Of a stretch of 64,000 nt of DNA, positions 1,959-14,189 are shown one piece after another. Source of the DNA: Bdellovibrionota bacterium. GTDB taxonomy: Bacteria > Bdellovibrionota_C > UBA2361 > JAAYZI01. The translations under genes and the position numbers were made by a program. The notes below the pieces were generated by a model. It was not told the DNA's origin and did not search any database. It saw only the letters and a list, made by a program, of their open reading frames with translations. Where the stretch lies: positions 384,001-448,000 of the forward strand of contig JBMNIF010000002.1 of the NCBI GenBank assembly GCA_050950765.1, in the 5' to 3' direction. Numbering within the stretch: position 1 is the first letter of the stretch; each line of letters starts with the position of its first letter.

Positions 1959-3374
1959 CTACTCTTCTTTTTTCTGCGGCTCTACTTTATCTAAGACATC
2001 ACTTTTTTTAGCTTCGGCTGTTGTTTCTTTCTTATCAGTTTTAGGTGGTGTTCTCTGTTTTTTGGGTACTCCCAAATTACGTGGATCAAACTTTGACATA
2101 TCAAACCCTTCCGGCAAGGTCTCACAATAAGTAACATTAAGGTAATCCATCATCAAAGTCCGCTTACTTTTTAGATCGTTAATCACCATCTGATTCGGGT
2201 ACGGAATACTCACACCGTTTTCACCTTGTGCAACTCCGTACAATATCGCAGCCGACTTCCAAAATTTACCTGCTCTATCGTAAACAAACTTATAAACTGG
2301 CAACATGCTCTCTTTATCAACATAAAGTGTCTGTCGTCCGTACAATGAATATGGATCTCTTGAAATCAGATCAATCTTAAATGCTTTACGCGCCGTAAAG
2401 ACGGCATCTGTCGGTAACCATGAAGCCCCTTGTGCATATTTTCTGGAACCGAAGTTCCAACGCATCTGCTGATCGGCGTGCGCTGCACTCATCGTTTCCG
2501 CTACACCGCTACAAGTTGGACCGACCTTCTTTAAAGCACCTTTATTTTTAGATGCAAACGGTAAAAAGACCTCCACCTCTCTAATCCTGCGTCCTTCTAC
2601 CAGTTCAAGCTTACCTGACCACAACAAAAAATCATCCGCAGCGATAGCCCCTGCTAAGAGATCACTTCTATTTGAGCCCGTTAGTTGACGTGCCTTTCCG
2701 ATAACAGGGGAGTAAGTCCAAACTACATCCTCGCTTCTTCCGTGAAACCTAAAGGTAAGCCAAGCATAACCGTTTAAGATGTCAGGCTTCTCAATCTCGA
2801 TCACTTCACGAAAAAGCTGCCCCGTCTGATCCGTCTCAGAAGCGCGCCAGTTGTAGAGACGCAAAGCTGTTCCCTGTAACTCTCTAAAGATCTCATCTTC
2901 CTGCTGTATGCGAATAATAAATCCGTATCTATTCACAGGATAAGCCCAATTAAGCGCTAAAACATTCCACAAGATTTTTCGGATCGCTCTCTTCTTTTCT
3001 GTTTTTGGTTGTATCTCATCCGTAGCGAAAAGAAATCCTTTGGAGAGCGTTCCCTCTACGGAAAGAGTTCCATCATCTTTTAATTCAACATCTTCAGAGT
3101 GTTCTTTTAACCAATCTGCACCGTAGTCGAAATCATAATTAAGGTCAGATACCACATCCATCACGATATTGCCGGAACGTAACTCAGCATAAAGCTCTAC
3201 GGGAATTTTTTTCTTATATTCATGCGCATTGGAAGCGTGCACCAGAACTCCTGCTAGTGGTTGCGCATCTGTAACGACTAATAGCGGTGCAACTTGCTGC
3301 GCATTAGCAGTAAAGGCGGTTAAGATACAAAATAGCAGACTCTTAGCTATATTTTGCATAATAGACCTATTCAT
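1959..3374 (-). CDS. DUF1329-family exported protein (LolA-like fold)
   Basis: Signal peptide ending ANA-Q; WTYSPVIGKARQL and DPYSLYGRQTLYVDKESMLPVYKFVYDRAGKFWK resemble DUF1329 motifs. Confidence 0.7.
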   Translation of the reverse strand: MNRSIMQNIAKSLLFCILTAFTANAQQVAPLLVVTDAQPLAGVLVHASNAHEYKKKIPVELYAELRSGNIVMDVVSDLNYDFDYGADWLKEHSEDVELKDDGTLSVEGTLSKGFLFATDEIQPKTEKKRAIRKILWNVLALNWAYPVNRYGFIIRIQQEDEIFRELQGTALRLYNWRASETDQTGQLFREVIEIEKPDILNGYAWLTFRFHGRSEDVVWTYSPVIGKARQLTGSNRSDLLAGAIAADDFLLWSGKLELVEGRRIREVEVFLPFASKNKGALKKVGPTCSGVAETMSAAHADQQMRWNFGSRKYAQGASWLPTDAVFTARKAFKIDLISRDPYSLYGRQTLYVDKESMLPVYKFVYDRAGKFWKSAAILYGVAQGENGVSIPYPNQMVINDLKSKRTLMMDYLNVTYCETLPEGFDMSKFDPRNLGVPKKQRTPPKTDKKETTAEAKKSDVLDKVEPQKKEE

Positions 3375-4003
3375 TTTTCAACTTTCCATGTTTCAGCGAA
3401 GGGATTTTTATGCGGATCGCGTTCTATCTCCTGCATCCGCTGCATATGTTGGTTATAAACATCTGCTGCCCCTTCCCGTTCCAGCAACTTACTCCGCTGC
3501 ACCAAAAGTGTCTTATCTTCCACAAAGAAAGCAGGATCTGGTGGATACACCTCCGGATGCAAACCACAATCCATCCTAATCGCATCAACAGGGCAGGCCT
3601 CTACACACAAACCGCAATAAATACACCTTAATGTATTTATTTCATAACGTTTCGGGAACTTTTCCAACGCCGGATCGGCATCTTCCGCCGCCTCTATATG
3701 GATACACTTTGACGGGCAAGCTGTCGCACACAAAAAGCAAGCCTTACACCGCACCTCTCCCTTTTCGTTCAAAGTAAGTCTATGCCGACCTCTAAACCTT
3801 TCCGCATAAACACGTCTTTCATCGGGATACTGAATAGAAACGATAAACGAGGGATCTTTCTTGCAGATGCCAAGCGCTTTCAAGGGGTGTAGTAGTGCAT
3901 TGAAGAATAGGCGGAAAGTCGTTATAGACACCCCCCTTACCACCTCAAAGATATAAGCCTTTTCCCATAATCCAACTTTAGAACGATATTTCATAAAACC
4001 CAA
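3371..4003 (-). CDS. nuoI: NADH-quinone oxidoreductase subunit I-like 2x[4Fe-4S] protein
   Basis: QYPDE..RFRGRHRL, CKACFLCATACP and RCIYCGLCVEACPVDAI. Confidence 0.85.
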   Translation of the reverse strand: MGFMKYRSKVGLWEKAYIFEVVRGVSITTFRLFFNALLHPLKALGICKKDPSFIVSIQYPDERRVYAERFRGRHRLTLNEKGEVRCKACFLCATACPSKCIHIEAAEDADPALEKFPKRYEINTLRCIYCGLCVEACPVDAIRMDCGLHPEVYPPDPAFFVEDKTLLVQRSKLLEREGAADVYNQHMQRMQEIERDPHKNPFAETWKVEK

Positions 4004-4244: not shown

Positions 4245-4850
4245 ATGACTTTAAATATAGAAGTTTTTTATTCATTTCAAAATCCGTACTCATATCTTGT
4301 ACTCGATAAGGTTTATGATATTGCAGACAACTACGATGTTGAGCTCTTGTGGCAGCCCTTCTCAGCCAGAGCCTCAGGGCAGCAGATACCAGCCTCCTCA
4401 ATCATACCAGAGAAGATCACCTATATGCTTGAGGACACAAAGCGTTCTGCTGCAGAACAGAACCTCCCTTTTGTTTACCCTGAAACGTGGCCGGAGTCAG
4501 AGTTTGATCCAGGGCGTGTTACCCGTGGTGCAGTAGTCGCTAACGATATGGGGATATTAAAAGAGTACAACTACAAGGTCTTCCAGAAATGGTGGGGCTT
4601 AGGAGAAGATCCTAACGATGAGAATTTCATGGCTGAATTAGCTGATGAATTAGATATCGATCTCGGCGATTTTCTTAGTAAGATCTCCAGCACAGACACT
4701 AGGGATCGTGTTAAAGGGATTTATAAAAGAGGTCGTAAGCTCGGTATCTTTGATACGCCCACCTTCTTAATAGATAAGGAGCGCATCTTCGGGCTTGATA
4801 AGGTTTCATACCTAGAGCAACGTCTGACCGCTATGGGATTAAAAAAATAA
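4245..4850 (+). CDS. DsbA-fold HCCA isomerase / kappa-class GST family protein
   Basis: IEVFYSFQNPYSYL at the N-terminus with no CxxC; C-terminal GIFDTPTFLIDKERIFGLDKV. Confidence 0.8.
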   Translation: MTLNIEVFYSFQNPYSYLVLDKVYDIADNYDVELLWQPFSARASGQQIPASSIIPEKITYMLEDTKRSAAEQNLPFVYPETWPESEFDPGRVTRGAVVANDMGILKEYNYKVFQKWWGLGEDPNDENFMAELADELDIDLGDFLSKISSTDTRDRVKGIYKRGRKLGIFDTPTFLIDKERIFGLDKVSYLEQRLTAMGLKK

Positions 4851-5301
4851 CTTATCAAAAAGGCGCATTCACTACCTGTTTAATCACTTCCTTAAAGATA
4901 AAAGAGGATTTAGACACCGTAGGAGCACTCTGCGCCTTATAAAGTCTTCTCACAAAAAAAACCTAACGGATTACTTCTATAAAGCCCTTTTTTCCTCCGT
5001 ATCTTAAACGTGATAGCACACCTAAAAAATTAAGAATCGCTTAACTTTCAGGTCTCATCCTAACCCTTCGCAGGGAGAGTGTTTTTAGTAACGGCTGTAT
5101 TTAGTAACTTTCCCCCAGATTTTGGAGTTATTCTTTGGCTTAAATCTTGCACACTCAGTGTTTTTCTTATAACGCTGCATCGCTGTTATAGGTTCCCAGA
5201 GTGTACATGTTACAGATTAAGCGGGGTTGCCCTCTCCGAAGACTAAAAAAGTCAAGTTCGGAAAAAGATTATAGAATGTTTTAGAAAAGATGCTCCTAAA
5301 T

Positions 5302-5330
5302 CTAAAGTTTTTTAGGAGAAAGTTCGATAT
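5302..5330 (+). promoter_or_regulatory. Possible sigma28 (FliA)-like promoter for the Tad pilin operon
   Basis: CTAAAGTTT...TTCGATAT; spacing is 1 bp longer than TAAA-N15-GCCGATAA. Confidence 0.35.
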
Positions 5331-5342
5331 CGGAGTTCTACT

Positions 5343-5921
5343 ATGCAGAGAACAGATTCTAATCATTCACAATCAGGTCTCGCCCTCGTGGAGCTCGCTC
5401 TACTTATACCCGTTTTTATTATTACCCTGTACGGTATAATAGACGTTGCAGATTTTCTAAACGAGCACTACAAGATAAGCCTTATCGCATACGAAGGTAC
5501 TCGCTTCGCCTCACATGCAGAGAAACTCGAGGCAGGAACGTGCGTAAAAAATGGCGCAGAAGCGATCAGTTGTGAAAAGATCACCTGCTCAACTGACACC
5601 ATCAACGCAACCACCACCTGCACACCTTGCACAAGTGAGAGGTGTAAAGCAACACTCCCCGTTCACAAAACTATCTTTGATAGGATTGACTCCTTACTTA
5701 CAGCACAGTACGGCGGCATCCCAGCACCTATTGAAGATATCCCCACCCGCCGCACCGTAACCTTTCAACAATCAAAAGCTGGGATCCCGATGGTAAGTAT
5801 TACCATCTCCGTGCCGCATAAAAGTTTTTTTGGAAAGTTTTTTACTAAAGATGGCACCGTAGTTGCTTCAGAAACAACAGCCTATTTAGTAAACACCCAA
5901 GAGTTTAATAAGCAAGGTTAA
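5343..5921 (+). CDS. TadE/TadF-like minor pilin with a small Cys-rich insert
   Basis: Prepilin motif QSG|LALVELALLIPVF...GIID, then AYEGTRFA; 6 Cys in the central insert. Confidence 0.85.
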   Translation: MQRTDSNHSQSGLALVELALLIPVFIITLYGIIDVADFLNEHYKISLIAYEGTRFASHAEKLEAGTCVKNGAEAISCEKITCSTDTINATTTCTPCTSERCKATLPVHKTIFDRIDSLLTAQYGGIPAPIEDIPTRRTVTFQQSKAGIPMVSITISVPHKSFFGKFFTKDGTVVASETTAYLVNTQEFNKQG

Positions 5922-5932
5922 GAGGTTTTATT

Positions 5933-8900
5933 ATGGTTAAAACAGATAGCAATCATCAACAACACGGTGCAGTATTAGTCGAGTTTGCTCTGGGAGGACT
6001 ACTCTTTTTTACATTGATCTTTTCTATGATCGACCTCTCGGTCTTCTTCTATAACAGATCCGCTATGCGTAATGCAGCACAACAGGCCTTAGAGTTAGCC
6101 TCTGTCATTGAAGGGCTTGACGTTGCTGAATCAATAGATCAATCAGGCAATATTCAGAGAGATTATAAGTACGCAGATGAAAAAATTATACAAAAAGCAG
6201 AAGAGCTCCTATCTTCTTTTAAACTTGGTTCATTAAGGATAAGGAGCAACTCCAATGAAACGATTAACTTTCGCGGTGAAGAGAAACCTCTCGGTATCTA
6301 TCTGGATGTTCCAGGTGGAGATACGATCGCTGAAAGAAATACTAGATTGGATTCAGAACCGATAAAGATTACGATTCTCGCTAAATACAAAGCGAGCACC
6401 CCCTTTCTGCCGGAGCTACCTATCGTCGTAACGGAAGCCGCTTATAGAGAGCTCCGCACCAAATCAAATCTGCCCGTAGCGCTAGACTGTAAAGGCAATC
6501 CGATAACAGATCTCTCAAAAGCTCCTACAACTTGCCCCTGCACTGAATCTTCAGACCCGAATGCTGTTTTAACAACAGGAAGCACCTCCTGTTCATGTCA
6601 AGTAAACGGGAAAAGTATTAGTAACTATAAATACGACCCCGTTACAAAGAGTTGCGGGTGTTACGGAGGAAACGGCCTCCTTAATGGAGATGTTTGCATC
6701 TGTGCACTGAAAGAAGACGGCTCTGACTGTACAGAAGATAATCAATATCTAGATGGTGCCAACTGCTCTTGCAAACAGAAAGAGTGTAAAGGAAGTAATC
6801 AAGTTGTAGAAAAAAACTCTGGGAAGTGTCTCTGCGGCATCACCTCTGGAGACTGCAAAGAAGATTATAGGCTAGTTAAAACAACGTTGGAGGACGGCAT
6901 TCAGTGTAATTGCGAACCGTGCGGAGAGAATGCACACCGTTACGGCTTTAAAAATGAAGATGATGACACAGAAAATGATGATGGCGAAACAGATGAAGGA
7001 CTCTTTAATACCTGTGTCTGCGATGCGCCGGAAACGTGTGGCGATGACATGATAATGCTTCCGTACAATAAGAACAAACAAGATGGCGCTACTATCGGAT
7101 GTCTTTGTCAATCTTGTCATGGTGGAAAAAGAGGTGATGTAGATAAAGACGGCATCGCTAATGAATGTGATTGTAGTGGCGTAACCTGCGCTTCTGGAGA
7201 ATGGAAAGATCCGGAAACTTGTGCCTGTATAGCTTGTAGCACTAACTCAAATGCAAAGATGGAAGCTCCAGAAGGTGCCACAAGTGCAGAGGATTGCACC
7301 TGTCAGTCCTATACCGTCTGCCCAAACAATCAAAAAATGGATGCAAGCTGCATCTGCACATCTTGCGGAACTAACAAACATAGGTATGGAACAAAAGATA
7401 GTGAGAAAGAAGAGAAGAAATTCAACACCTGTGTCTGTGACCCTTACACAAAGTGCGGCAAGAATCAGACTATGGACAAAAATTGCAACTGCAAAGATTG
7501 TGGAAGCCATGCAACAAGAGCTAAGGATAGTAACAGCTGCGTCTGTATTAACGACATTACAAACCCAAATCAATATACGCCCTCAGTAAACGGAGGTTGT
7601 GCCTGTAACACGACTGACAGTAACATTGAATACAAAAACTGTACAGGATCAGGGAGTTATTTTAATACAAAAACTTGCCGATGTGAAAGTTGTGGAGTCA
7701 CAAACTCTACCCGTAAAGATCCGCAGGCTGAAACTAACGGTGTAAAGAGTGATAACGTTTATAGTTGTAGTGGCGAAGAGTGCGGTTGTATCTGCTTAAG
7801 TGGTAATGAAATCTCTAACGGAAGCTGCGGCTGTAATGACATATCAACGTACAATTGTGGAAAATCGGGCAATGGAAACTGGTTTTGTGAAAAAGATTGC
7901 AGTTGTAAAAGCTCAAATATATCCGATTACAATTGCAGCTGCGCTATAGATAAAAGTCATTGCACTAATAAATCATATCCATACTTTGATGAAATAAATT
8001 GTGAGTGTAGTAGCGCTTGCCCAGATCAACACAACTGTGAATGCGCTCTAACAGAAGCTATCTGCGGGGGTGATTTTGACCCGAATAAGTGTCAATGTTG
8101 CGGAAAGTATGCTCACTACGATGAAACAAGTGAGTCTTGTGTTTGTGATACAAATTACTCAGGTACTAATCCATACAGTAGTTGTGAATGTAGTAGAGAG
8201 TGTAATGCAGCAGGCGGTTATTACAGAGAAGATCTAAACTGCTCTTGCCAGAAATGCGGAAAATTTGAAGTTGTTACGCAAAGTAAAGATGCTTGCGAGT
8301 GCAGATACGACAACGATCCTTCCACGAGAAAAGGGGCAGCTCCCGACAACCTTTGCAATACAGGACAGGAGTTCGATTACGAGCACTGTACCTGTACCTG
8401 CCCACCTGATACGGATGAAACATGGTCAGAAGCTGAGTGTAACGCTATCGGAGCTATCTATAACTACGACACCTGCGACTGCCAACGTCCTGAAGGAAAT
8501 CACGATTCAGAAAAAAGTTGCGTAGGAGCTGATTGTTGTGTTGGCGAAGAGGTTTATATAAATGACAAGTGTGTTTGTGAAGATAAAGATAAGAAGGCTG
8601 CTGCATGTAAAAACAATGGAAGAACTTTCTCCGAAGAGTTGTGTTCCTGCGGCGGAGGTGGTGGCGGCGGTACTTGCGGTGTTTGGACAGAGGCACAACA
8701 TAATGCAAAACGTCAAGCTTGTAACGAAGCAGGTAAGATGTATAGCGCATCGAGTTGCAGCTGCTACTCTTGTAGATACAATCAGAGCTTTACAAATAAT
8801 AACGGTGTTTACAGTTGCCAATGTAATTTAGAGAGTAAAACGGTAAAAGATCGCCGACAAGTTTGTGAAAATAACGGCGGAACATTTGATACTACTTATT

Positions 8901-11131
8901 GCCGGTGTAGTGGTGGAGAGGGTACTTGTAATAATAATATAGCTGAAAACTTAGAAACGGGGCAACGTAAAGTCTTAGATCCGACTAGTGGTGTTTGCCG
9001 ATGTCAAAACAACTTAAAAGAGGATCCGACAACACATATCTGCAGTTGTGATAATAACCTGTTTGGAATATCAGGATCTAAAAATCAGTTAAAACTAAGT
9101 GGTAATTTCTGTGTTTGCGAGAACAACGGAACTCTTACTAACGGCAGTTGTAGCTGTACAGATAATCAAGTAATCGGTGCAAATAATACGTGCGTCTGTA
9201 AAGATACACTCAATACGATAGCAAACTCTCCAACTTGCACCTGTAAAAACAATCTGGTTATGGGGTCAGACGGTATCTGTACCTGTAAGGGAGACCAGAA
9301 ATTAGAGGCAGGCTCCTGTGTCTGTGAAAATCCATTGATGAAGATCGATTCTTCAAATAACTGTATCTGTGATTTATCCGGCTTAACGGACGAAGAGAAG
9401 AAAGAGCTGATTCCGTGCGGAAAAGGTGAAGTGATTAACGAAACTTTGTGCGGTTGTTCAAAAAGAGAGGCTACGGCAGGTGAAGAAGACGGTACAGGCG
9501 AGTGCCCGCCGAATACTAAACTTGCTCAAGATACTGATGGACGGTGGGTCTGTAAATGTGAAAATGAAGCTCTTACAGCAGAGGGAGAGAATTGTCTGTG
9601 TGATATAACTGAAGGTGGCGCAGCCCGTAGCAGTTATCTCGCCTGTGTTGGAGAGGCAGGAAATGAAACAGGTCGAGACTTTAACACAACCTCTTGTAAA
9701 TGTTGTACAGGTCAAGAAACATACGATCAGAACTTAAAATCTTGTATCTGCGAAGCGAGTGTAGCTGAAAGTTGTAATTATGGAGAGAAAGGTCCCTTCT
9801 CTTCCTTAAGGTGTGATTGCTGCGGCAGAAATGAAAAACTTACGGAGAATAACGATTGCACCTGTGATGAGGAAAAAATACGGGATTTTTGTCAACTTAC
9901 AGGGAAAACATACATACTAGGAAGTTGCAGCTGCGGAGAAAAGTGCGGAGTCAGTAATTTAAAGAAGCTAAACCTTGCTACAAACACCTGCGAATGCCCA
10001 AGTAACGCAAGTGCGCAGTGTGCTGAAGGGATCGCTTATAATGCAGATGCCTGCCAGTGTTGTAGCTCAAAATATCAGGAAGTAAAAAATGGTGCCTGTG
10101 TCTGTAAAGATACAGCAACTTTAAAAGCAGAGTGTGTTAATGAAGGAAAACCTATTGCAGGTTGCGGTTGCGGAGCAAGTTGTACAAACGGTAAAGTTTT
10201 AGATACCAACCCTGCAAGCACAAAATACGGAACTTGCGTTTGTGATGAGACAGCTCTTGATGCCTATTGTGCAGATCAAAAGAAACCTGTTGCGAGTTAT
10301 AATTCTTGTACTTGTCAGAACACAATTTGTTCTAATAACTTTACAGCAAGTGGAACAGGCTGCATCTGTGATACAACACAAGGAATTGCAAAAGCTGCAA
10401 AAGACAACTGCACTGGTGAATTCAGTGAAACATCATGCTCTTGCTGCGCAAATGAAAATTATGAACTTGATGATACTACCGGTCAATGCACCTGTAAAAA
10501 AGCAGGTACTCCTTGTGATGAGAACGGCTATTACAGTGATGCTTGCGACTGTAAAACGTGTCAAGGAAATGAAAAGGTAAATGAAACCTTTAGCGGCTGT
10601 GAATGTACAACTGGAACAGCTGAAGGTACAAGTCAAAGCACTGCCAACTGCGGAGAAAATCAGAGGTTTGACACCGCAACTTGCAGCTGTGTTGATTGTG
10701 GAGGTAAATACCGTTCTTCCGAAGATGGATTAAGTTGTGATGTTTGCCCGACTGCAGAAGCAAAAACACTTTGTAGCGGCGCTAACTATGTACTGGATGA
10801 AAATAGCTGTAATTGCATAAGGTGTAACGAACTTCGTACTGAAGATGCTACTGGACTTAAGTGTGAATGTAAAAACAATGCAGGCGACTACTGTACAGAG
10901 AGACGTAATGGAAGTGTGCCTGACGAAGATTGTAACACCTGCATCTGTACTGAAGGTTTTATCAAAATGACAGTTTATGACCTATCTGGGAAAGCGTACG
11001 ATATCTGTGTTGATGATGACTACGCAGGGTGCATACGAGATGAGGAGGACAATATCTACAACTGTAATGGTACTGAGTATGTCTATAATACACATACTAA
11101 TTCCTTTGAAGACTACTCTCCACTTGAATAG
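5933..11131 (+). CDS. Giant TadE-like pilin fused to about 1550 aa of CxC-rich repeats (putative pilus adhesin)
   Basis: QHG|AVLVEFALGGLLFFTLIFSMID prepilin N-terminus with NAAQQALELA; from about residue 186 to the end a CxC motif recurs every 15-25 aa. Confidence 0.85.
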   Translation: MVKTDSNHQQHGAVLVEFALGGLLFFTLIFSMIDLSVFFYNRSAMRNAAQQALELASVIEGLDVAESIDQSGNIQRDYKYADEKIIQKAEELLSSFKLGSLRIRSNSNETINFRGEEKPLGIYLDVPGGDTIAERNTRLDSEPIKITILAKYKASTPFLPELPIVVTEAAYRELRTKSNLPVALDCKGNPITDLSKAPTTCPCTESSDPNAVLTTGSTSCSCQVNGKSISNYKYDPVTKSCGCYGGNGLLNGDVCICALKEDGSDCTEDNQYLDGANCSCKQKECKGSNQVVEKNSGKCLCGITSGDCKEDYRLVKTTLEDGIQCNCEPCGENAHRYGFKNEDDDTENDDGETDEGLFNTCVCDAPETCGDDMIMLPYNKNKQDGATIGCLCQSCHGGKRGDVDKDGIANECDCSGVTCASGEWKDPETCACIACSTNSNAKMEAPEGATSAEDCTCQSYTVCPNNQKMDASCICTSCGTNKHRYGTKDSEKEEKKFNTCVCDPYTKCGKNQTMDKNCNCKDCGSHATRAKDSNSCVCINDITNPNQYTPSVNGGCACNTTDSNIEYKNCTGSGSYFNTKTCRCESCGVTNSTRKDPQAETNGVKSDNVYSCSGEECGCICLSGNEISNGSCGCNDISTYNCGKSGNGNWFCEKDCSCKSSNISDYNCSCAIDKSHCTNKSYPYFDEINCECSSACPDQHNCECALTEAICGGDFDPNKCQCCGKYAHYDETSESCVCDTNYSGTNPYSSCECSRECNAAGGYYREDLNCSCQKCGKFEVVTQSKDACECRYDNDPSTRKGAAPDNLCNTGQEFDYEHCTCTCPPDTDETWSEAECNAIGAIYNYDTCDCQRPEGNHDSEKSCVGADCCVGEEVYINDKCVCEDKDKKAAACKNNGRTFSEELCSCGGGGGGGTCGVWTEAQHNAKRQACNEAGKMYSASSCSCYSCRYNQSFTNNNGVYSCQCNLESKTVKDRRQVCENNGGTFDTTYCRCSGGEGTCNNNIAENLETGQRKVLDPTSGVCRCQNNLKEDPTTHICSCDNNLFGISGSKNQLKLSGNFCVCENNGTLTNGSCSCTDNQVIGANNTCVCKDTLNTIANSPTCTCKNNLVMGSDGICTCKGDQKLEAGSCVCENPLMKIDSSNNCICDLSGLTDEEKKELIPCGKGEVINETLCGCSKREATAGEEDGTGECPPNTKLAQDTDGRWVCKCENEALTAEGENCLCDITEGGAARSSYLACVGEAGNETGRDFNTTSCKCCTGQETYDQNLKSCICEASVAESCNYGEKGPFSSLRCDCCGRNEKLTENNDCTCDEEKIRDFCQLTGKTYILGSCSCGEKCGVSNLKKLNLATNTCECPSNASAQCAEGIAYNADACQCCSSKYQEVKNGACVCKDTATLKAECVNEGKPIAGCGCGASCTNGKVLDTNPASTKYGTCVCDETALDAYCADQKKPVASYNSCTCQNTICSNNFTASGTGCICDTTQGIAKAAKDNCTGEFSETSCSCCANENYELDDTTGQCTCKKAGTPCDENGYYSDACDCKTCQGNEKVNETFSGCECTTGTAEGTSQSTANCGENQRFDTATCSCVDCGGKYRSSEDGLSCDVCPTAEAKTLCSGANYVLDENSCNCIRCNELRTEDATGLKCECKNNAGDYCTERRNGSVPDEDCNTCICTEGFIKMTVYDLSGKAYDICVDDDYAGCIRDEEDNIYNCNGTEYVYNTHTNSFEDYSPLE

Positions 11132-11159
11132 TAACCATTAAACTACAAAGGTTATACTT

Positions 11160-13112
11160 ATGAAAAGAGAAAGAGATAACGGTGGTTTTTTGGTAACATT
11201 TGCTATCCTACTTCCGATCGTAATAGGGTTTGTAGCTTTTGCGATAGACCTTAGTATCGGGATGGAATCAGGGAGACAAGCTAGAGACTTTACTAAACTA
11301 GCCACCTTAAAAGCTCTTGAAGGGTACTACGCTTGTAGCGCCTCCTCTTGTCCGACCCATGATGACAGGATGAAAGCTGCTAGAAGAGGGGCTCAAAGCA
11401 TTTTAAACAGCTTAGAAAACGAGACTGTCGGAAAAAACAGCGAGCGGATTGTTGACGCAAAAGCAGAGCTCAGCACCAGTCCTGATGCCCAATTTAGATT
11501 AAAAGCAGGGTGTTGGACCACTGCTGGTTTTGCAGAACGTGGAACCAGTAATTGTAGTGAAGAGCATAATCCAGGGGCGATGCAGATTGAGGGTAAATAT
11601 CCCTTTGTAACGGAAGCTATTTTCGGTAAGATCTTCGGGAAAGACCACTATGCACAATATGTGCGGGTGACTTCACAAGTTATACCACGCCATATCTACT
11701 TCTTAGTTGATGCTTCTGGATCTGTTGTAAGAGACAACTTTAAAACAGAGCGGTATGAAGATTTCGCCTACTACGATCAAGCTGTAACAGGGGGAGAGGG
11801 GCTACCCACTCATACATTTTGGTATAATTCCAAGCTTCAGAAATGTGATAAAGAAACTCCTTCAGAAAATGATGCTATCTGTAAAGAGATGTATGTAGCA
11901 AAAGCTATCCTTAACGATACCGATTATGATGAAGCTCTATACCCCCACCATCCGAATCCAAGTAGATATCCGACAGGAGTAAATTCAGGCGGACATCAAG
12001 TGTATAGAATCAATAAGATAGTCTCTCCTCAACCTTTAACCGATATCTTTGCTGGAGTTAATAAGGCTATCCACACAATTAACGATCATAAAATTGCAGG
12101 CGATAGGGTCGGCGTTATCTTTTTTACAAATAAGATATCTTGGCCAAGAATGACTAACTTAACTGATGATTTAGATTATTTAGAGAGATTTACAGACTTT
12201 ACTACTAATAAAAACATCTTAGATGATACAAAAGAGATAAAGCCTAACGGCGAAGAGACCTTAAAAATCAGTACGGAAGGACAACCTGCCGTAGAAGTTT
12301 CTCAAATATTACCCTCAACAGGTTTTGAGAAAGCTATCCGTCACGGACTTTTCCCGGTAGAGCCACCCGCTTTTACAAATATTAAGGAAGCTTTAACGGC
12401 AGCATTAGATCAATTTGATAAAAATGATGATGGAAGTGATGTAGCTCGCTCCGTTATCCTTTTTTCTGACGGTATTCAGAATTGTGCTAAGGATCCTTGT
12501 AGTGGAGGCAAATTCTGTGGCAATACGTATCAATGTTATATACAAGGTATGCCTGAACTACGAAATATCGTTATGGCACGTATGACAGGAGAAAATCTGA
12601 TTCCGTTTCATATGTTTCCTATCGGAAACAGTGTTGAACCGCACACAAAGATCATCTTAAAGAAAGAAGGGGGGTGTTACACAGATTCCAATTTTAGAAT
12701 AGAAACCGATAGTAGTATCAAAAAAGATTCACTGGGCTTCGTTTTAGGCTCAACCGATGGAAGTGGCAATTCTTGTCGTATTCAAAATACTTATAGTACA
12801 GATCCAACTTGTAGCGCTGCTTTTAAAAATGATGGATTTCATCAACCACTTCAAGACCTCTATGAGTTAGCTGTCGCTACGCAAGGAGTTTGGGCACCTC
12901 TTCGTCCACAAGGAACGGGAACGAACTGTTCAAAGAGCACGGATCAAAGTTGTATTGACGATAGCGGTAATAAGAGAGAGATTCGTGTACACGACCCGTT
13001 ATGTCGTACATACGCCGAGCAGATTGACGATTATATGCAAGAGATCGTCGGTATAAATCCATTTCGTGTTGTTGAAACCGTTAAGATCCCTGAAGATATG
13101 AATAAATATTAA
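11160..13112 (+). CDS. TadG-like pilin with a vWA (MIDAS) domain
   Basis: NGG|FLVTFAILLPIVIGFVAFAIDL; FLVDASGSV (DxSxS), DRVGVIFF, TNIKEAL, VILFSDG. Confidence 0.85.
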   Translation: MKRERDNGGFLVTFAILLPIVIGFVAFAIDLSIGMESGRQARDFTKLATLKALEGYYACSASSCPTHDDRMKAARRGAQSILNSLENETVGKNSERIVDAKAELSTSPDAQFRLKAGCWTTAGFAERGTSNCSEEHNPGAMQIEGKYPFVTEAIFGKIFGKDHYAQYVRVTSQVIPRHIYFLVDASGSVVRDNFKTERYEDFAYYDQAVTGGEGLPTHTFWYNSKLQKCDKETPSENDAICKEMYVAKAILNDTDYDEALYPHHPNPSRYPTGVNSGGHQVYRINKIVSPQPLTDIFAGVNKAIHTINDHKIAGDRVGVIFFTNKISWPRMTNLTDDLDYLERFTDFTTNKNILDDTKEIKPNGEETLKISTEGQPAVEVSQILPSTGFEKAIRHGLFPVEPPAFTNIKEALTAALDQFDKNDDGSDVARSVILFSDGIQNCAKDPCSGGKFCGNTYQCYIQGMPELRNIVMARMTGENLIPFHMFPIGNSVEPHTKIILKKEGGCYTDSNFRIETDSSIKKDSLGFVLGSTDGSGNSCRIQNTYSTDPTCSAAFKNDGFHQPLQDLYELAVATQGVWAPLRPQGTGTNCSKSTDQSCIDDSGNKREIRVHDPLCRTYAEQIDDYMQEIVGINPFRVVETVKIPEDMNKY

Positions 13113-13121
13113 GATATAACC

Positions 13122-14189
13122 ATGTCTAAAAAACTTACTTTCTTCCTATTTGCCTCATCCTTTGTTATTGCTCTCGGATTCATTGCGCTAATCTCCTTTA
13201 ACAACGAACGTCTTGAGTTACAAGTTATTCTCCCGAAAAGTGCACAAGAAATTCCCCTACAATTATCTCACTTTGAAAAATCACACCGTAACGTTCGTTT
13301 TCAGATCAGATATATAGCAGACACTGAATTTAAAAGAGAGTTACACGATCTACCCATTAAAGCAGATATCGTATTCCTACCTTCAAAGCAGTGGCTAAAA
13401 TTTACTGATAGCAACAGTTACGTTAAATACAGAAACTCCATTTTAACCTCACCAACCGTTATCTTAATGAATAAGAAACACGCTAAAAAATATGCAAGCA
13501 AACGTGTTAAACTTAACGCTAAAAAATTTATGCGAGGTGTAACTCTAAAAAGCTTAACCTTCTCCATGCCAAGTCCGAAGAGCTCTGCTCTCGGTATGGC
13601 GACCTTCTTCGGCTTTATTGAAGCTCTTGTGCAAGATAAAACACTCCGTCCCCAACAAACAGTACCGGAAGGAACCTCCTCAACAAAGGAACGTATCCTC
13701 TCCCCTTATGAAGTGTTGTCACTAAAGAAAGTTCAAAACTTTCTTCAAAGCATAGATATAAATGATACAGACAATCTACTTGCAGCTTTAGAAAACAACA
13801 CTTACGATGGTGTTGTTACAACGGAGCAGCAAGCTGCTCTACTTAATAAAAGACTAAAAGCAGAGAAGAAAGAAAGTTTCGCCATCTTATATTTTAAAGA
13901 GGCCGATCTCGCCTTTAATCTTACTTTAGGTTTTATTGATAAAGGTGATCCTGAAAAGGAAAACGTCTTTAACGAGTTACGCACCTTTTTAACCTCACCT
14001 GAAGTTCAAAATAACTTTTCACACGAACTTTATCGCACCCGACTAGGAGATAACTACGACCCTAAAGATTGGCAAGGGCTTCTTCCCCATTGGCACCCCT
14101 ACACAGAGTGCCCCTTTGGTCACTCAAAAATTGTAAAACTTATAGCCTCCTTCCAAGAGATTAGAAAAGAAGTAGGTGGGGCTGAATAA
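13122..14189 (+). CDS. Membrane-anchored substrate-binding-fold protein (vWA-associated type)
   Basis: N-terminal TM; ADIVFLPS, SILTSPTVILM, FSMPSPKSSALG, YDGVVTTEQ, FLTSPEVQ resemble SBP-like proteins; 9-bp gap after the TadG-like gene. Confidence 0.6.
   Translation: MSKKLTFFLFASSFVIALGFIALISFNNERLELQVILPKSAQEIPLQLSHFEKSHRNVRFQIRYIADTEFKRELHDLPIKADIVFLPSKQWLKFTDSNSYVKYRNSILTSPTVILMNKKHAKKYASKRVKLNAKKFMRGVTLKSLTFSMPSPKSSALGMATFFGFIEALVQDKTLRPQQTVPEGTSSTKERILSPYEVLSLKKVQNFLQSIDINDTDNLLAALENNTYDGVVTTEQQAALLNKRLKAEKKESFAILYFKEADLAFNLTLGFIDKGDPEKENVFNELRTFLTSPEVQNNFSHELYRTRLGDNYDPKDWQGLLPHWHPYTECPFGHSKIVKLIASFQEIRKEVGGAE

Follow-up and report, generated by a model that had tools for sequence, protein, structure and literature searches.

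We examined a stretch of 64,000 nucleotides from the genome of a Bdellovibrionota bacterium (the window, C2:384001-448000, where C and a number denote a contig; the genome spans 2.64 Mb and is 94% complete) and found that a cassette of four genes within it probably encodes one of several interchangeable tips of a Tad pilus. The cassette specifies a short TadE-family minor pilin, a giant TadE-family minor pilin with a long cysteine-repeat arm, a TadG-type large minor pilin and a protein related to the SBP_bac_11 family. A known precedent is the Kil Tip of Myxococcus xanthus, which the accessible part of its description attributes to paralogous, disulfide-rich KilL/KilM/KilN clusters that lie apart from the motor (Herrou et al., 2025, PMC12075869).

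The four open reading frames (ORFs 1-4) lie on the + strand at window positions 5343-5921, 5933-11131, 11160-13112 and 13122-14189. When we re-read the coordinates, the shared orientation and the gaps of 11, 28 and 9 bp all matched those given in the first-pass annotation, which had been made from the sequence without database searches. That annotation had also recognized Tad prepilin N termini on the first three products, and our profile searches and alignments agree. ORF1 (192 residues, in a KilM/TadF-like position) and ORF2 (1,732 residues, 186 kDa, isoelectric point 4.6) score 26.9 bits (E = 5e-6) and 36.6 bits (E = 5e-9) against TadE (PF07811), for which the cut-off is 22.9 bits, and both carry a class III signal consisting of Gly-1, Glu+5 and a hydrophobic helix. 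In ORF1, the signal is G12|LALVE. E17, the Glu+5 residue, is invariant in an alignment of 15 pilins of the ORF1 class (position-1 pilins) and is also kept in middle pilins, the class to which ORF2 belongs; Gly-1 is kept as well. The pilin domain of ORF2 spans residues 13 to ~185 and is followed by the arm. Searches with hidden Markov models matched ORF3 to VWA and ORF4 to no relevant family, and NCBIfam contained no match for any of the four proteins.

ORF3 (650 residues) lacks Glu+5, and no Pfam Tad family, including PF13400, matched it at E ≤ 0.1; one homologue in the genome does match PF13400. Its pilin N terminus was recognized from an alignment with 18 homologues (19 rows), in which G8 is invariant and position +5 is not Glu, and from a structural model (predicted template-modelling score, pTM, 0.76) that contains a 52-residue N-terminal helix (residues 7-58), a pilin-like region and an interrupted vWA domain. 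The best VWA profile match is to VWA_2 (27.4 bits, cut-off 27). Of the residues that form the MIDAS (metal ion-dependent adhesion site), D184 and S186 are invariant and S188 and D437 nearly so in 19 homologues, while T406, the probable MIDAS threonine, is invariant in five. Foldseek returned six matches at E ≤ 0.001, all of them vWA proteins and three of them pilus tip adhesins; the top matches include the tip adhesins PitA, SpaC, Mfa5 and PilB. No relative turned up when metagenomes were scanned with TadG. From the alignment and the model, we assign ORF3 to the TadG/CpaL-type large minor pilins with an intact vWA MIDAS motif.

As the first-pass annotation had suggested predicting a complex of the three pilin domains, we modelled the mature domains of ORF1 (chain 1), ORF2 and ORF3 together. 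The result was a three-helix-bundle trimer with a score of 0.68, compared with 0.47 for the best control. Contacts agreed between runs to at least 72%, and the local confidence (pLDDT) of the partner chains was at least 69. Of solved complexes, 116 of 157 reach the mark set for such predictions, as do 2 of 215 mismatched pairs; these counts are rough when applied to a three-chain job with its own alignments. By sequence, no solved structure was found that is close enough for the model to have drawn on. The most certain contacts are among the three helices. Since the interface also holds residues 173-191 of the giant and residues 427-640 of TadG, on its vWA side, the outer end of the predicted trimer is probably where the arm begins. 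We take the prediction as a narrow pass that indicates likeness to a tip and not binding itself. Together with the N termini, we consider it very likely that the cassette builds the tip trimer of a Tad pilus.

Cysteine-rich additions had been noted on all three pilins. This description holds strongly for ORF2, with 202 cysteines (11.7%), and modestly for ORF1, with a six-cysteine insertion at residues 67-101 that contains all its cysteines. It hardly holds for ORF3, whose 16 cysteines (2.5%) are ordinary for a family in which homologues have 1.4-3.7%. All 202 cysteines of the giant fall in the arm (residues 186-1711; 6488-11065, + strand), which we delimited by CxC motifs, spacing and hydropathy as about 69 modules of the form C-x(9-12, variable)-C-x-C. 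The arm contains 70 CxC, 13 CxxC and 6 CC motifs and one CxxCH, and the commonest spacing ahead of CxC is 10-12 residues (38 of 69 modules). The giant has few histidines (14 of 1,732 residues) and no second membrane segment by hydropathy. Repeats in the DNA of the gene are short, diverged copies (68-85%) over cysteine codons, so no recent repeat expansion is visible.

To judge the state of these cysteines, we used the 150 best homologues of the giant from a search of 1.84 billion representative sequences. A recognizable pilin motif was present in 131 of them, and of these, 82 have at least ten cysteines past the membrane helix. The number of cysteines is even in 76 of the 82 (binomial p = 8e-17, with rows that are not fully independent), and five control residues gave even and odd counts at about 50:50. 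The protein of the paralogous cassette described below has an odd total, 161, which becomes 160 after leader removal. We regard the even parity as good evidence that all the cysteines pair through intrachain disulfides, with up to 101 bonds in the giant, and as evidence against metal binding or inter-chain cross-linking. The genome carries a VKOR-DsbA-like fusion and DsbA-like genes, named by eye from their motifs. We had also considered a DSBA-family gene at 4245-4850 of the window as a dedicated oxidase, and dropped it; it lies 492 bp upstream of the cassette and, by eye, lacks a signal peptide.

A 129-residue piece of the arm was modelled as a chain of short β-hairpins (pLDDT 75.5, pTM 0.53). 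This model is a rough guide, as four of the seven stretches in its alignment came from one protein. Compared with EGF-, TNFR- and furin-like repeats, it gave at best a Z score of 2.6 with a root-mean-square deviation of 8.6 over 78 aligned residues, Foldseek returned nothing under E 0.1, and with arm residues 960-1480 the Atlas gave nothing usable (best 0.81). The cysteine spacing is near the CX10CXCXC repeat of Chironomus BR3 silk and VEGF-C, as the available portion of the source gives it (PMC5816233), and the corresponding family, PF03128, gives a marginal match to the giant's paralogue (15.7 bits against a cut-off of 15) and a clear match to one homologue (20.1 bits). These likenesses would suit a cross-linked fibre or sheath resembling Balbiani-ring silk, in which inter-chain disulfides join the giants into a holdfast or matrix, with the pilin head as no more than an export tag. 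We regard such a fibre as very unlikely: the parity speaks for intrachain pairing, and Pro/Thr linkers occupy the same place in 31 of the 150 homologues, pointing to a spacer role. In addition, the exact motif occurs once in the giant and PF03128 does not match it at E ≤ 1, which places the giant outside the silk repeat family.

What follows the pilin domain differs greatly among homologues. The giant is the longest of the 150 best matches, whose median length is 334 residues. Their tails comprise 11 of CxC type, 5 of CGNG type (one of which matches DUF4215), 32 that are otherwise cysteine-rich, 31 rich in Pro/Thr, 70 short and 1 other. The CxC tails of relatives have 14-20 CxC motifs, versus 70 in the giant and 57 in its paralogue. 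A word-based search with the first 260 residues of the giant, covering proteins of 952-3,031 residues, found only the giant itself. Within the phylum, represented by 124 genomes of one class, a middle-pilin profile matched 65 genomes, with weak matches that include short TadE genes. Among the 150 listed of 233 matches, the longest frames were 1,739 and 1,563 residues, both from this genome, followed by 1,084; fragmented assemblies under-sample long genes. Because the tails differ in kind, from CxC and CGNG to Pro/Thr-rich and short, sequence comparison identifies the middle pilin as a carrier of variable, interchangeable stalks, of which the giant is an extreme case.

The machinery expected for such a tip is encoded elsewhere, as the first-pass annotation had proposed for a stand-alone cassette. 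The genome contains TadZ, RcpC, TadA, TadB, TadC, Flp pilins and a prepilin peptidase. Two motor loci of the tadZ-rcpC-tadA-tadB-tadC type are present, one at C3:605969-612818 (tadZ, two rcpC, tadA, tadB and tadC) and one at C1:143940-149650. Genes for Flp-like pilins lie at C1:386741, C1:387119 and C2:1246902, an additional copy lies at C4:294, and the genome's one A24 prepilin peptidase is encoded at C2:803095. All motor, Flp and peptidase genes found genome-wide lie outside the window, whose 49 long ORFs were themselves scanned for tad genes in part. Thus, neither a mismatch of the N termini to Tad pilins nor a lack of assembly genes, either of which would have spoken against the proposal, was observed. 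The tad operon of this genome at C3:601265-616592 and those of relatives contain a PP2C-like gene, a 350-residue gene, a kinase, tadZ, flp, rcpC, tadA, tadB, tadC, an SctV-like gene and a kinase-like gene, and in 42 of 79 loci a gene for a TlpA/ResA-like thioredoxin comes next; the C3 operon has two rcpC and no flp.

Matches to TadE occur in four places in the genome: the cassette, a full paralogous cassette, a plain triad (C3:173025-176329) and a lone 650-residue TadE-family gene without partners (C2:911349-913301). The paralogous cassette (C2:550306-559600) encodes proteins of 222, 1,562, 633 and 541 residues in the same order, and these are 25-33% identical to their counterparts. In a tree of 19 rows, the two TadG proteins of the genome are sisters (support 100/99); the middle-pilin tree is a quick one. 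The second cassette is, on this phylogenetic evidence, a lineage-specific duplicate. As both four-gene cassettes have sister TadGs, the giant arm and the SBP gene predate the duplication in this lineage. A search with TadG found matches in 13 of the 41 genomes of the order. Counted by eye, 12 of 20 relatives' loci have co-oriented genes for short TadE, middle TadE and TadG, and four have middle TadE and TadG; the rest are three with TadG alone (two at contig ends) and one unrelated vWA gene. Within the phylum, the triad is common. Paralogous cassettes that bear other payloads, for which the first-pass annotation had suggested looking, occur in this genome and in relatives whose tails are of differing type.

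A leader motif, TDSNHxQxG, is common to both TadE genes of the cassette and had been attributed to local duplication. The motif itself is confirmed, as codons 4-12 of the short TadE gene (5352-5378, + strand) and of the giant gene (5942-5968, + strand) are identical at 19 of 27 nucleotides. The duplication is not supported by profiles of the two position classes, built without the rows of this genome, whether the membrane helix is included or not. With the helix removed, one protein gave E values of 1.8e-13 on its own class and 0.04 on the other, and the second gave 2.6e-13 and 7e-4. As each scores far better on its own class, these sequences indicate that the two TadE genes belong to old, separate classes and have only the short leader in common. 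Short conversion or convergence is likelier than recent gene duplication as the source of this likeness. The same five leader residues open the nearest relative of the giant's pilin domain (L010:9576-9590); they may thus be an old feature of the middle pilin that was copied to the short TadE gene here.

The fourth gene encodes a membrane-anchored SBP_bac_11-type protein of 355 residues. It had no direct Pfam match to SBP_bac_11, and we classified it from a paralogue alignment, the Atlas and a family search, which gave 1,076 matches. The protein is 25% identical to its 541-residue paralogue, which matches SBP_bac_11 and VWA_3, and ends where the paralogue's vWA begins. Its Atlas feature score is 0.97, with template-modelling scores of 0.75-0.78 to SBP-vWA clusters. 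By alignment and fold, the protein is the SBP half of a truncated SBP_bac_11-vWA protein; the fold is that of the family and the vWA is absent. A single-protein search had suggested that the SBP protein is unique to this genome (1 of 91 genomes). This was overturned by an alignment search, which found matches in 15 of 124, some of them weak and to vWA only.

Whether this protein is an accessory of the tip or a passenger is about evenly balanced. We put just short of an even chance on the passenger explanation, in which the gene came to lie beside tadG in this lineage, was duplicated along with the cassette and is now decaying, an explanation compatible with a tip role for the three pilins. None of the 20 tip loci of relatives has an SBP match, and in 9 of 9 loci where relatives encode an SBP-vWA homologue, no short-TadE or middle-pilin gene is nearby; that gene mostly sits between lpxD-like and pantothenate-kinase-like genes, named by eye. 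The family elsewhere adjoins XpaC-like genes (4 of 4 tested neighbours, from 7 loci). The cassette has no XpaC-like neighbour, TelA was not found in the genome, and the vWA has been lost from the cassette copy. An SBP gene next to tip genes is, in the sequences surveyed, peculiar to this genome, where it occurs twice. Against decay, the gene was kept in both cassettes through a duplication old enough for 25-33% identity, it follows tadG after 9 bp, and its frame has no insertion or deletion in another strain.

We compared the cassette with one other strain and found no coding insertions, deletions or joints. Codon changes, counted from 40 of 253 strain differences, had non-synonymous to synonymous ratios of 7:4 in the giant, 3:3 in tadG and 2:17 in four flanking genes, and no cysteine was touched. 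These changes fit relaxed constraint and are too few to indicate positive selection. In one shallow RNA run, short contigs matched three genes of the cassette as well as genes flanking it, although contigs alone cannot show transcription. The sigma-70 promoter and terminator consensus was not found in 4800-5400 of the window. The stretch occurs in sequencing runs from anaerobic digesters, bioreactors, biogas plants, wastewater and landfill, and at least half of its words are present in 18 of 24 listed rows, 6 of which are possible sources. Anaerobic reactors are rich in metals and sulfide.

Several observations weigh against the interpretation of the cassette as an interchangeable, surface-exposed tip. 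The margin of the trimer over the best control was 0.21, where 0.20 was required, and that control retains the short TadE, so TadG contributes little to the score. The arm has no binding domain, no match to a known family in Pfam, NCBIfam or the Atlas, and no terminal globular domain. The one other strain shows no gain or loss of modules and no clear positive selection. In the Kil system, as far as the accessible text describes it, the variable part is the distal domain of the TadG-like KilN (PMC12075869), whereas here a tail of up to 1,500 residues is attached to the middle pilin. A further difficulty concerns the outer membrane. The N-domain of the RcpA secretin (PF13629) was found in none of the 41 genomes of the order, although a Caulobacter control was positive. 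Secretins never exceed two per genome in these 41 genomes, and no secretin gene occurs in 79 tad loci (within up to 8 kb). As RcpA was not found, passage of a 186-kDa tip across the outer membrane is unexplained.

The two secretins of this genome are in gsp and pilMNOQ operons; in one relative, the second secretin passes the PilQ cut-off. RcpC is present in all 41 genomes of the order, in 1-8 copies. Several relatives have a lone rcpC on the contig that bears pilMNOQ, at a distance of 20-30 kb, and the two such genes that we inspected have no other tad genes beside them. A strongly diverged RcpA could escape both profiles. By these profile searches, the machine of the order does not appear to be a canonical, RcpA-bearing Tad system with a dedicated secretin. 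According to the part of the study available to us, secretin gain was the founding event of diderm Tad systems and secretin loss is a monoderm trait (Denise et al., PMC6668835).

One explanation for the missing RcpA is that a secretin-less Tad machine makes a short fibre in the periplasm, a pseudopilus or piston, with the trimer as its tip and the giant as its cargo, perhaps exported via GspD and shed as an extracellular fibre. In a variant, the machine works with the export gate of the same operon, as Kil does with a needleless type III secretion system (T3SS) in Myxococcus. An SctV-like gene is 3' of tadC in this genome, in 60 of 79 tad loci and in 33 of 34 long ones, and homologues of FHIPEP and of FliP/SctR number three each in the genome, with a single flagellar set among them. 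We nevertheless consider a piston, in either form, unlikely. Ordinary short major pilins of the Flp type are encoded in the genome, and in systems that have been studied such pilins assemble into pili outside the cell; no release site is evident in the sequence of the arm; and a diverged RcpA could have been missed, as noted. The two type III export sets besides the flagellum are scattered (C1:16-21 kb, C5:53-57 kb, C2:261-266 kb and C3:100875-102224). Their genes are SctJ-, SctV-, SctR/S/T/U- and SctN-like, an SctC secretin was not found, and the sets resemble a needleless T3SS.

The lack of RcpA is also what one would expect if the pilin-like helix were a mere inner-membrane anchor, with the giant and the SBP protein forming a periplasmic scaffold or sensor whose arm binds metals through its CxC, CxxC and CC motifs. 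The number of these motifs and the anaerobic-reactor habitat would suit such a role. A scaffold of this kind is highly improbable, as Gly-1 and Glu+5 are retained, a trimer is predicted, the parity is even, histidine is rare with a single CxxCH, and the arm model shows β-hairpins.

We therefore return to the interchangeable tip and suggest how it might work. Sec would take the three prepilins into the inner membrane, where the cysteines would be oxidized pairwise on the periplasmic side, a pairing backed by the parity. The single A24, PilD-type peptidase would cut the leaders, by analogy with Bdellovibrio. The three N-terminal helices are predicted to assemble into a heterotrimer capped by TadG, beneath which a Tad motor from elsewhere in the genome would polymerize Flp. 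The arm would leave the trimer beside the TadG vWA as a thin, acidic, disulfide-stapled chain of small β-hairpins. Judged by the dimensions of EGF and TNFR modules, it would measure ~80-110 nm if extended. It could act as a spacer or a multivalent contact arm, with the MIDAS as a site for metal-dependent adhesion; in sequence, that MIDAS is the recognizable adhesive site, and no binding domain was found on the giant itself. Exit of the tip is the weakest step. A borrowed secretin, PilQ rather than GspD, is our best guess, with a periplasmic piston or an unrecognized pore as the rivals. The SBP protein would be a lineage-specific recruit and at best an inner-membrane accessory.

Confidence differs among the parts of this proposal. 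Display of the arm outside the cell as a contact arm is somewhat better supported than not. The likeliest use would be attachment to other cells, as in related predators, and prey or host cells as the target, which the first-pass annotation had raised, are possible but fall a little below an even chance. A bolder synthesis is doubtful as a whole. In it, the Tad machines of the order are secretin-less and share one operon with a type III gate, the tips are customized by middle-pilin stalks, and a capture tether of ~100 nm and ~100 disulfides passes through a borrowed secretin with the SBP protein as loader or sensor.

Other features lie apart from the cassette. A NuoI-like ferredoxin gene at 3371-4003 of the window stands alone, outside a nuo operon, and adjoins a DUF1329/LolA-like gene (named by eye). 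Large secreted proteins with M4 peptidase, TSP3 and FG-GAP domains are repeated, at contig ends, in C2:1241165-1252138, C3:2634-8078 and C4:294-611, and a Flp-like pilin with a cysteine-containing tail lies between or beside them, possibly in a tandem array. Other large, cysteine-rich (5-7%), secreted-looking proteins of 865-3,365 residues are encoded at C1:116023-121572, C2:774805-780123, C2:783734-793831, C2:566410-569424 and C2:827222-829819, one of them ~7 kb from the paralogous cassette. A 1,258-residue ORF at C2:136131-139907 has an N terminus that may be Cas12a-like.

Stand-alone, variable Tad tips were already known from Kil, and orphan tadG genes from Caulobacter and Bdellovibrio. We regard Kil tips as analogues of this cassette, which would work like a Kil Tip. 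As far as the Kil paper is accessible (PMC12075869), both have three TadE/F/G-like minor pilins, a predicted helix-bundle trimer, many disulfides, paralogous clusters and a needleless T3SS-like gate in the genome. They differ in that Kil has its own secretin, KilC, and none was found here; in that TadG has a vWA with a MIDAS, whereas KilN4 matches no fold in the Protein Data Bank; and in that an SBP gene is attached here and not in Kil. The same portion of the paper reports tip1-4 genes only in Myxococcota and proposes such adaptable tips across Tad systems.

In Caulobacter crescentus, CpaL is likewise an orphan TadG-type pilin with an interrupted vWA and MIDAS, predicted to form a tip with CpaJ and CpaK, but cpaL stands alone and the available text describes no giant partner (PMC12607857). 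Caulobacter also has an RcpA-type secretin, which our profiles detected as a control and did not find here. The Bdellovibrio bacteriovorus system shares dispersed tad genes, a lone tadG, the lack of TadV, a shared PilD and nearby signalling genes, but has a duplicated RcpA and a TadZA fusion, and no giant repeat pilin is described in the accessible part of that report (bioRxiv 10.64898/2026.07.08.737194). The VEGF-C/Chironomus BR3 repeat, in what is available of its description, also forms long tandem arrays in which CxC closes a loop of 10-12 residues in each short module (PF03128; PMC5816233). In the arm, which is bacterial, fused to a pilin and not matched by PF03128, the third cysteine is at a variable distance, and the likeness may be convergent. 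The SBP protein shares the SBP fold and an N-terminal anchor with the SBP-vWA family, in which the paralogue retains a degenerate vWA. It differs from that family in lacking a vWA, an N-terminal lipoprotein cysteine, an XpaC-like neighbour and TelA in the genome, and in its place beside tadG.

A literature search, with subscription papers mostly outside its reach, returned nothing on giant repeat-bearing TadE pilins or secretin-less Tad systems in this lineage. Two things are unusual here, namely how long the arm is and that the lineage apparently has no dedicated pore in the outer membrane. This poses a question about type IV filament export: how a 186-kDa, disulfide-rich tip would cross the outer membrane without a Tad secretin in an anaerobic habitat. 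If the cells are digester predators or epibionts, the cassette offers a handle on their attachment targets. Compared with Kil, the cassette would bring a phylum of uncultured bacteria under the adaptable-tip model of Tad pili and add a second way to vary the tip, through a middle-pilin stalk that differs in chemistry and ranges in length from <100 to ~1,500 residues.

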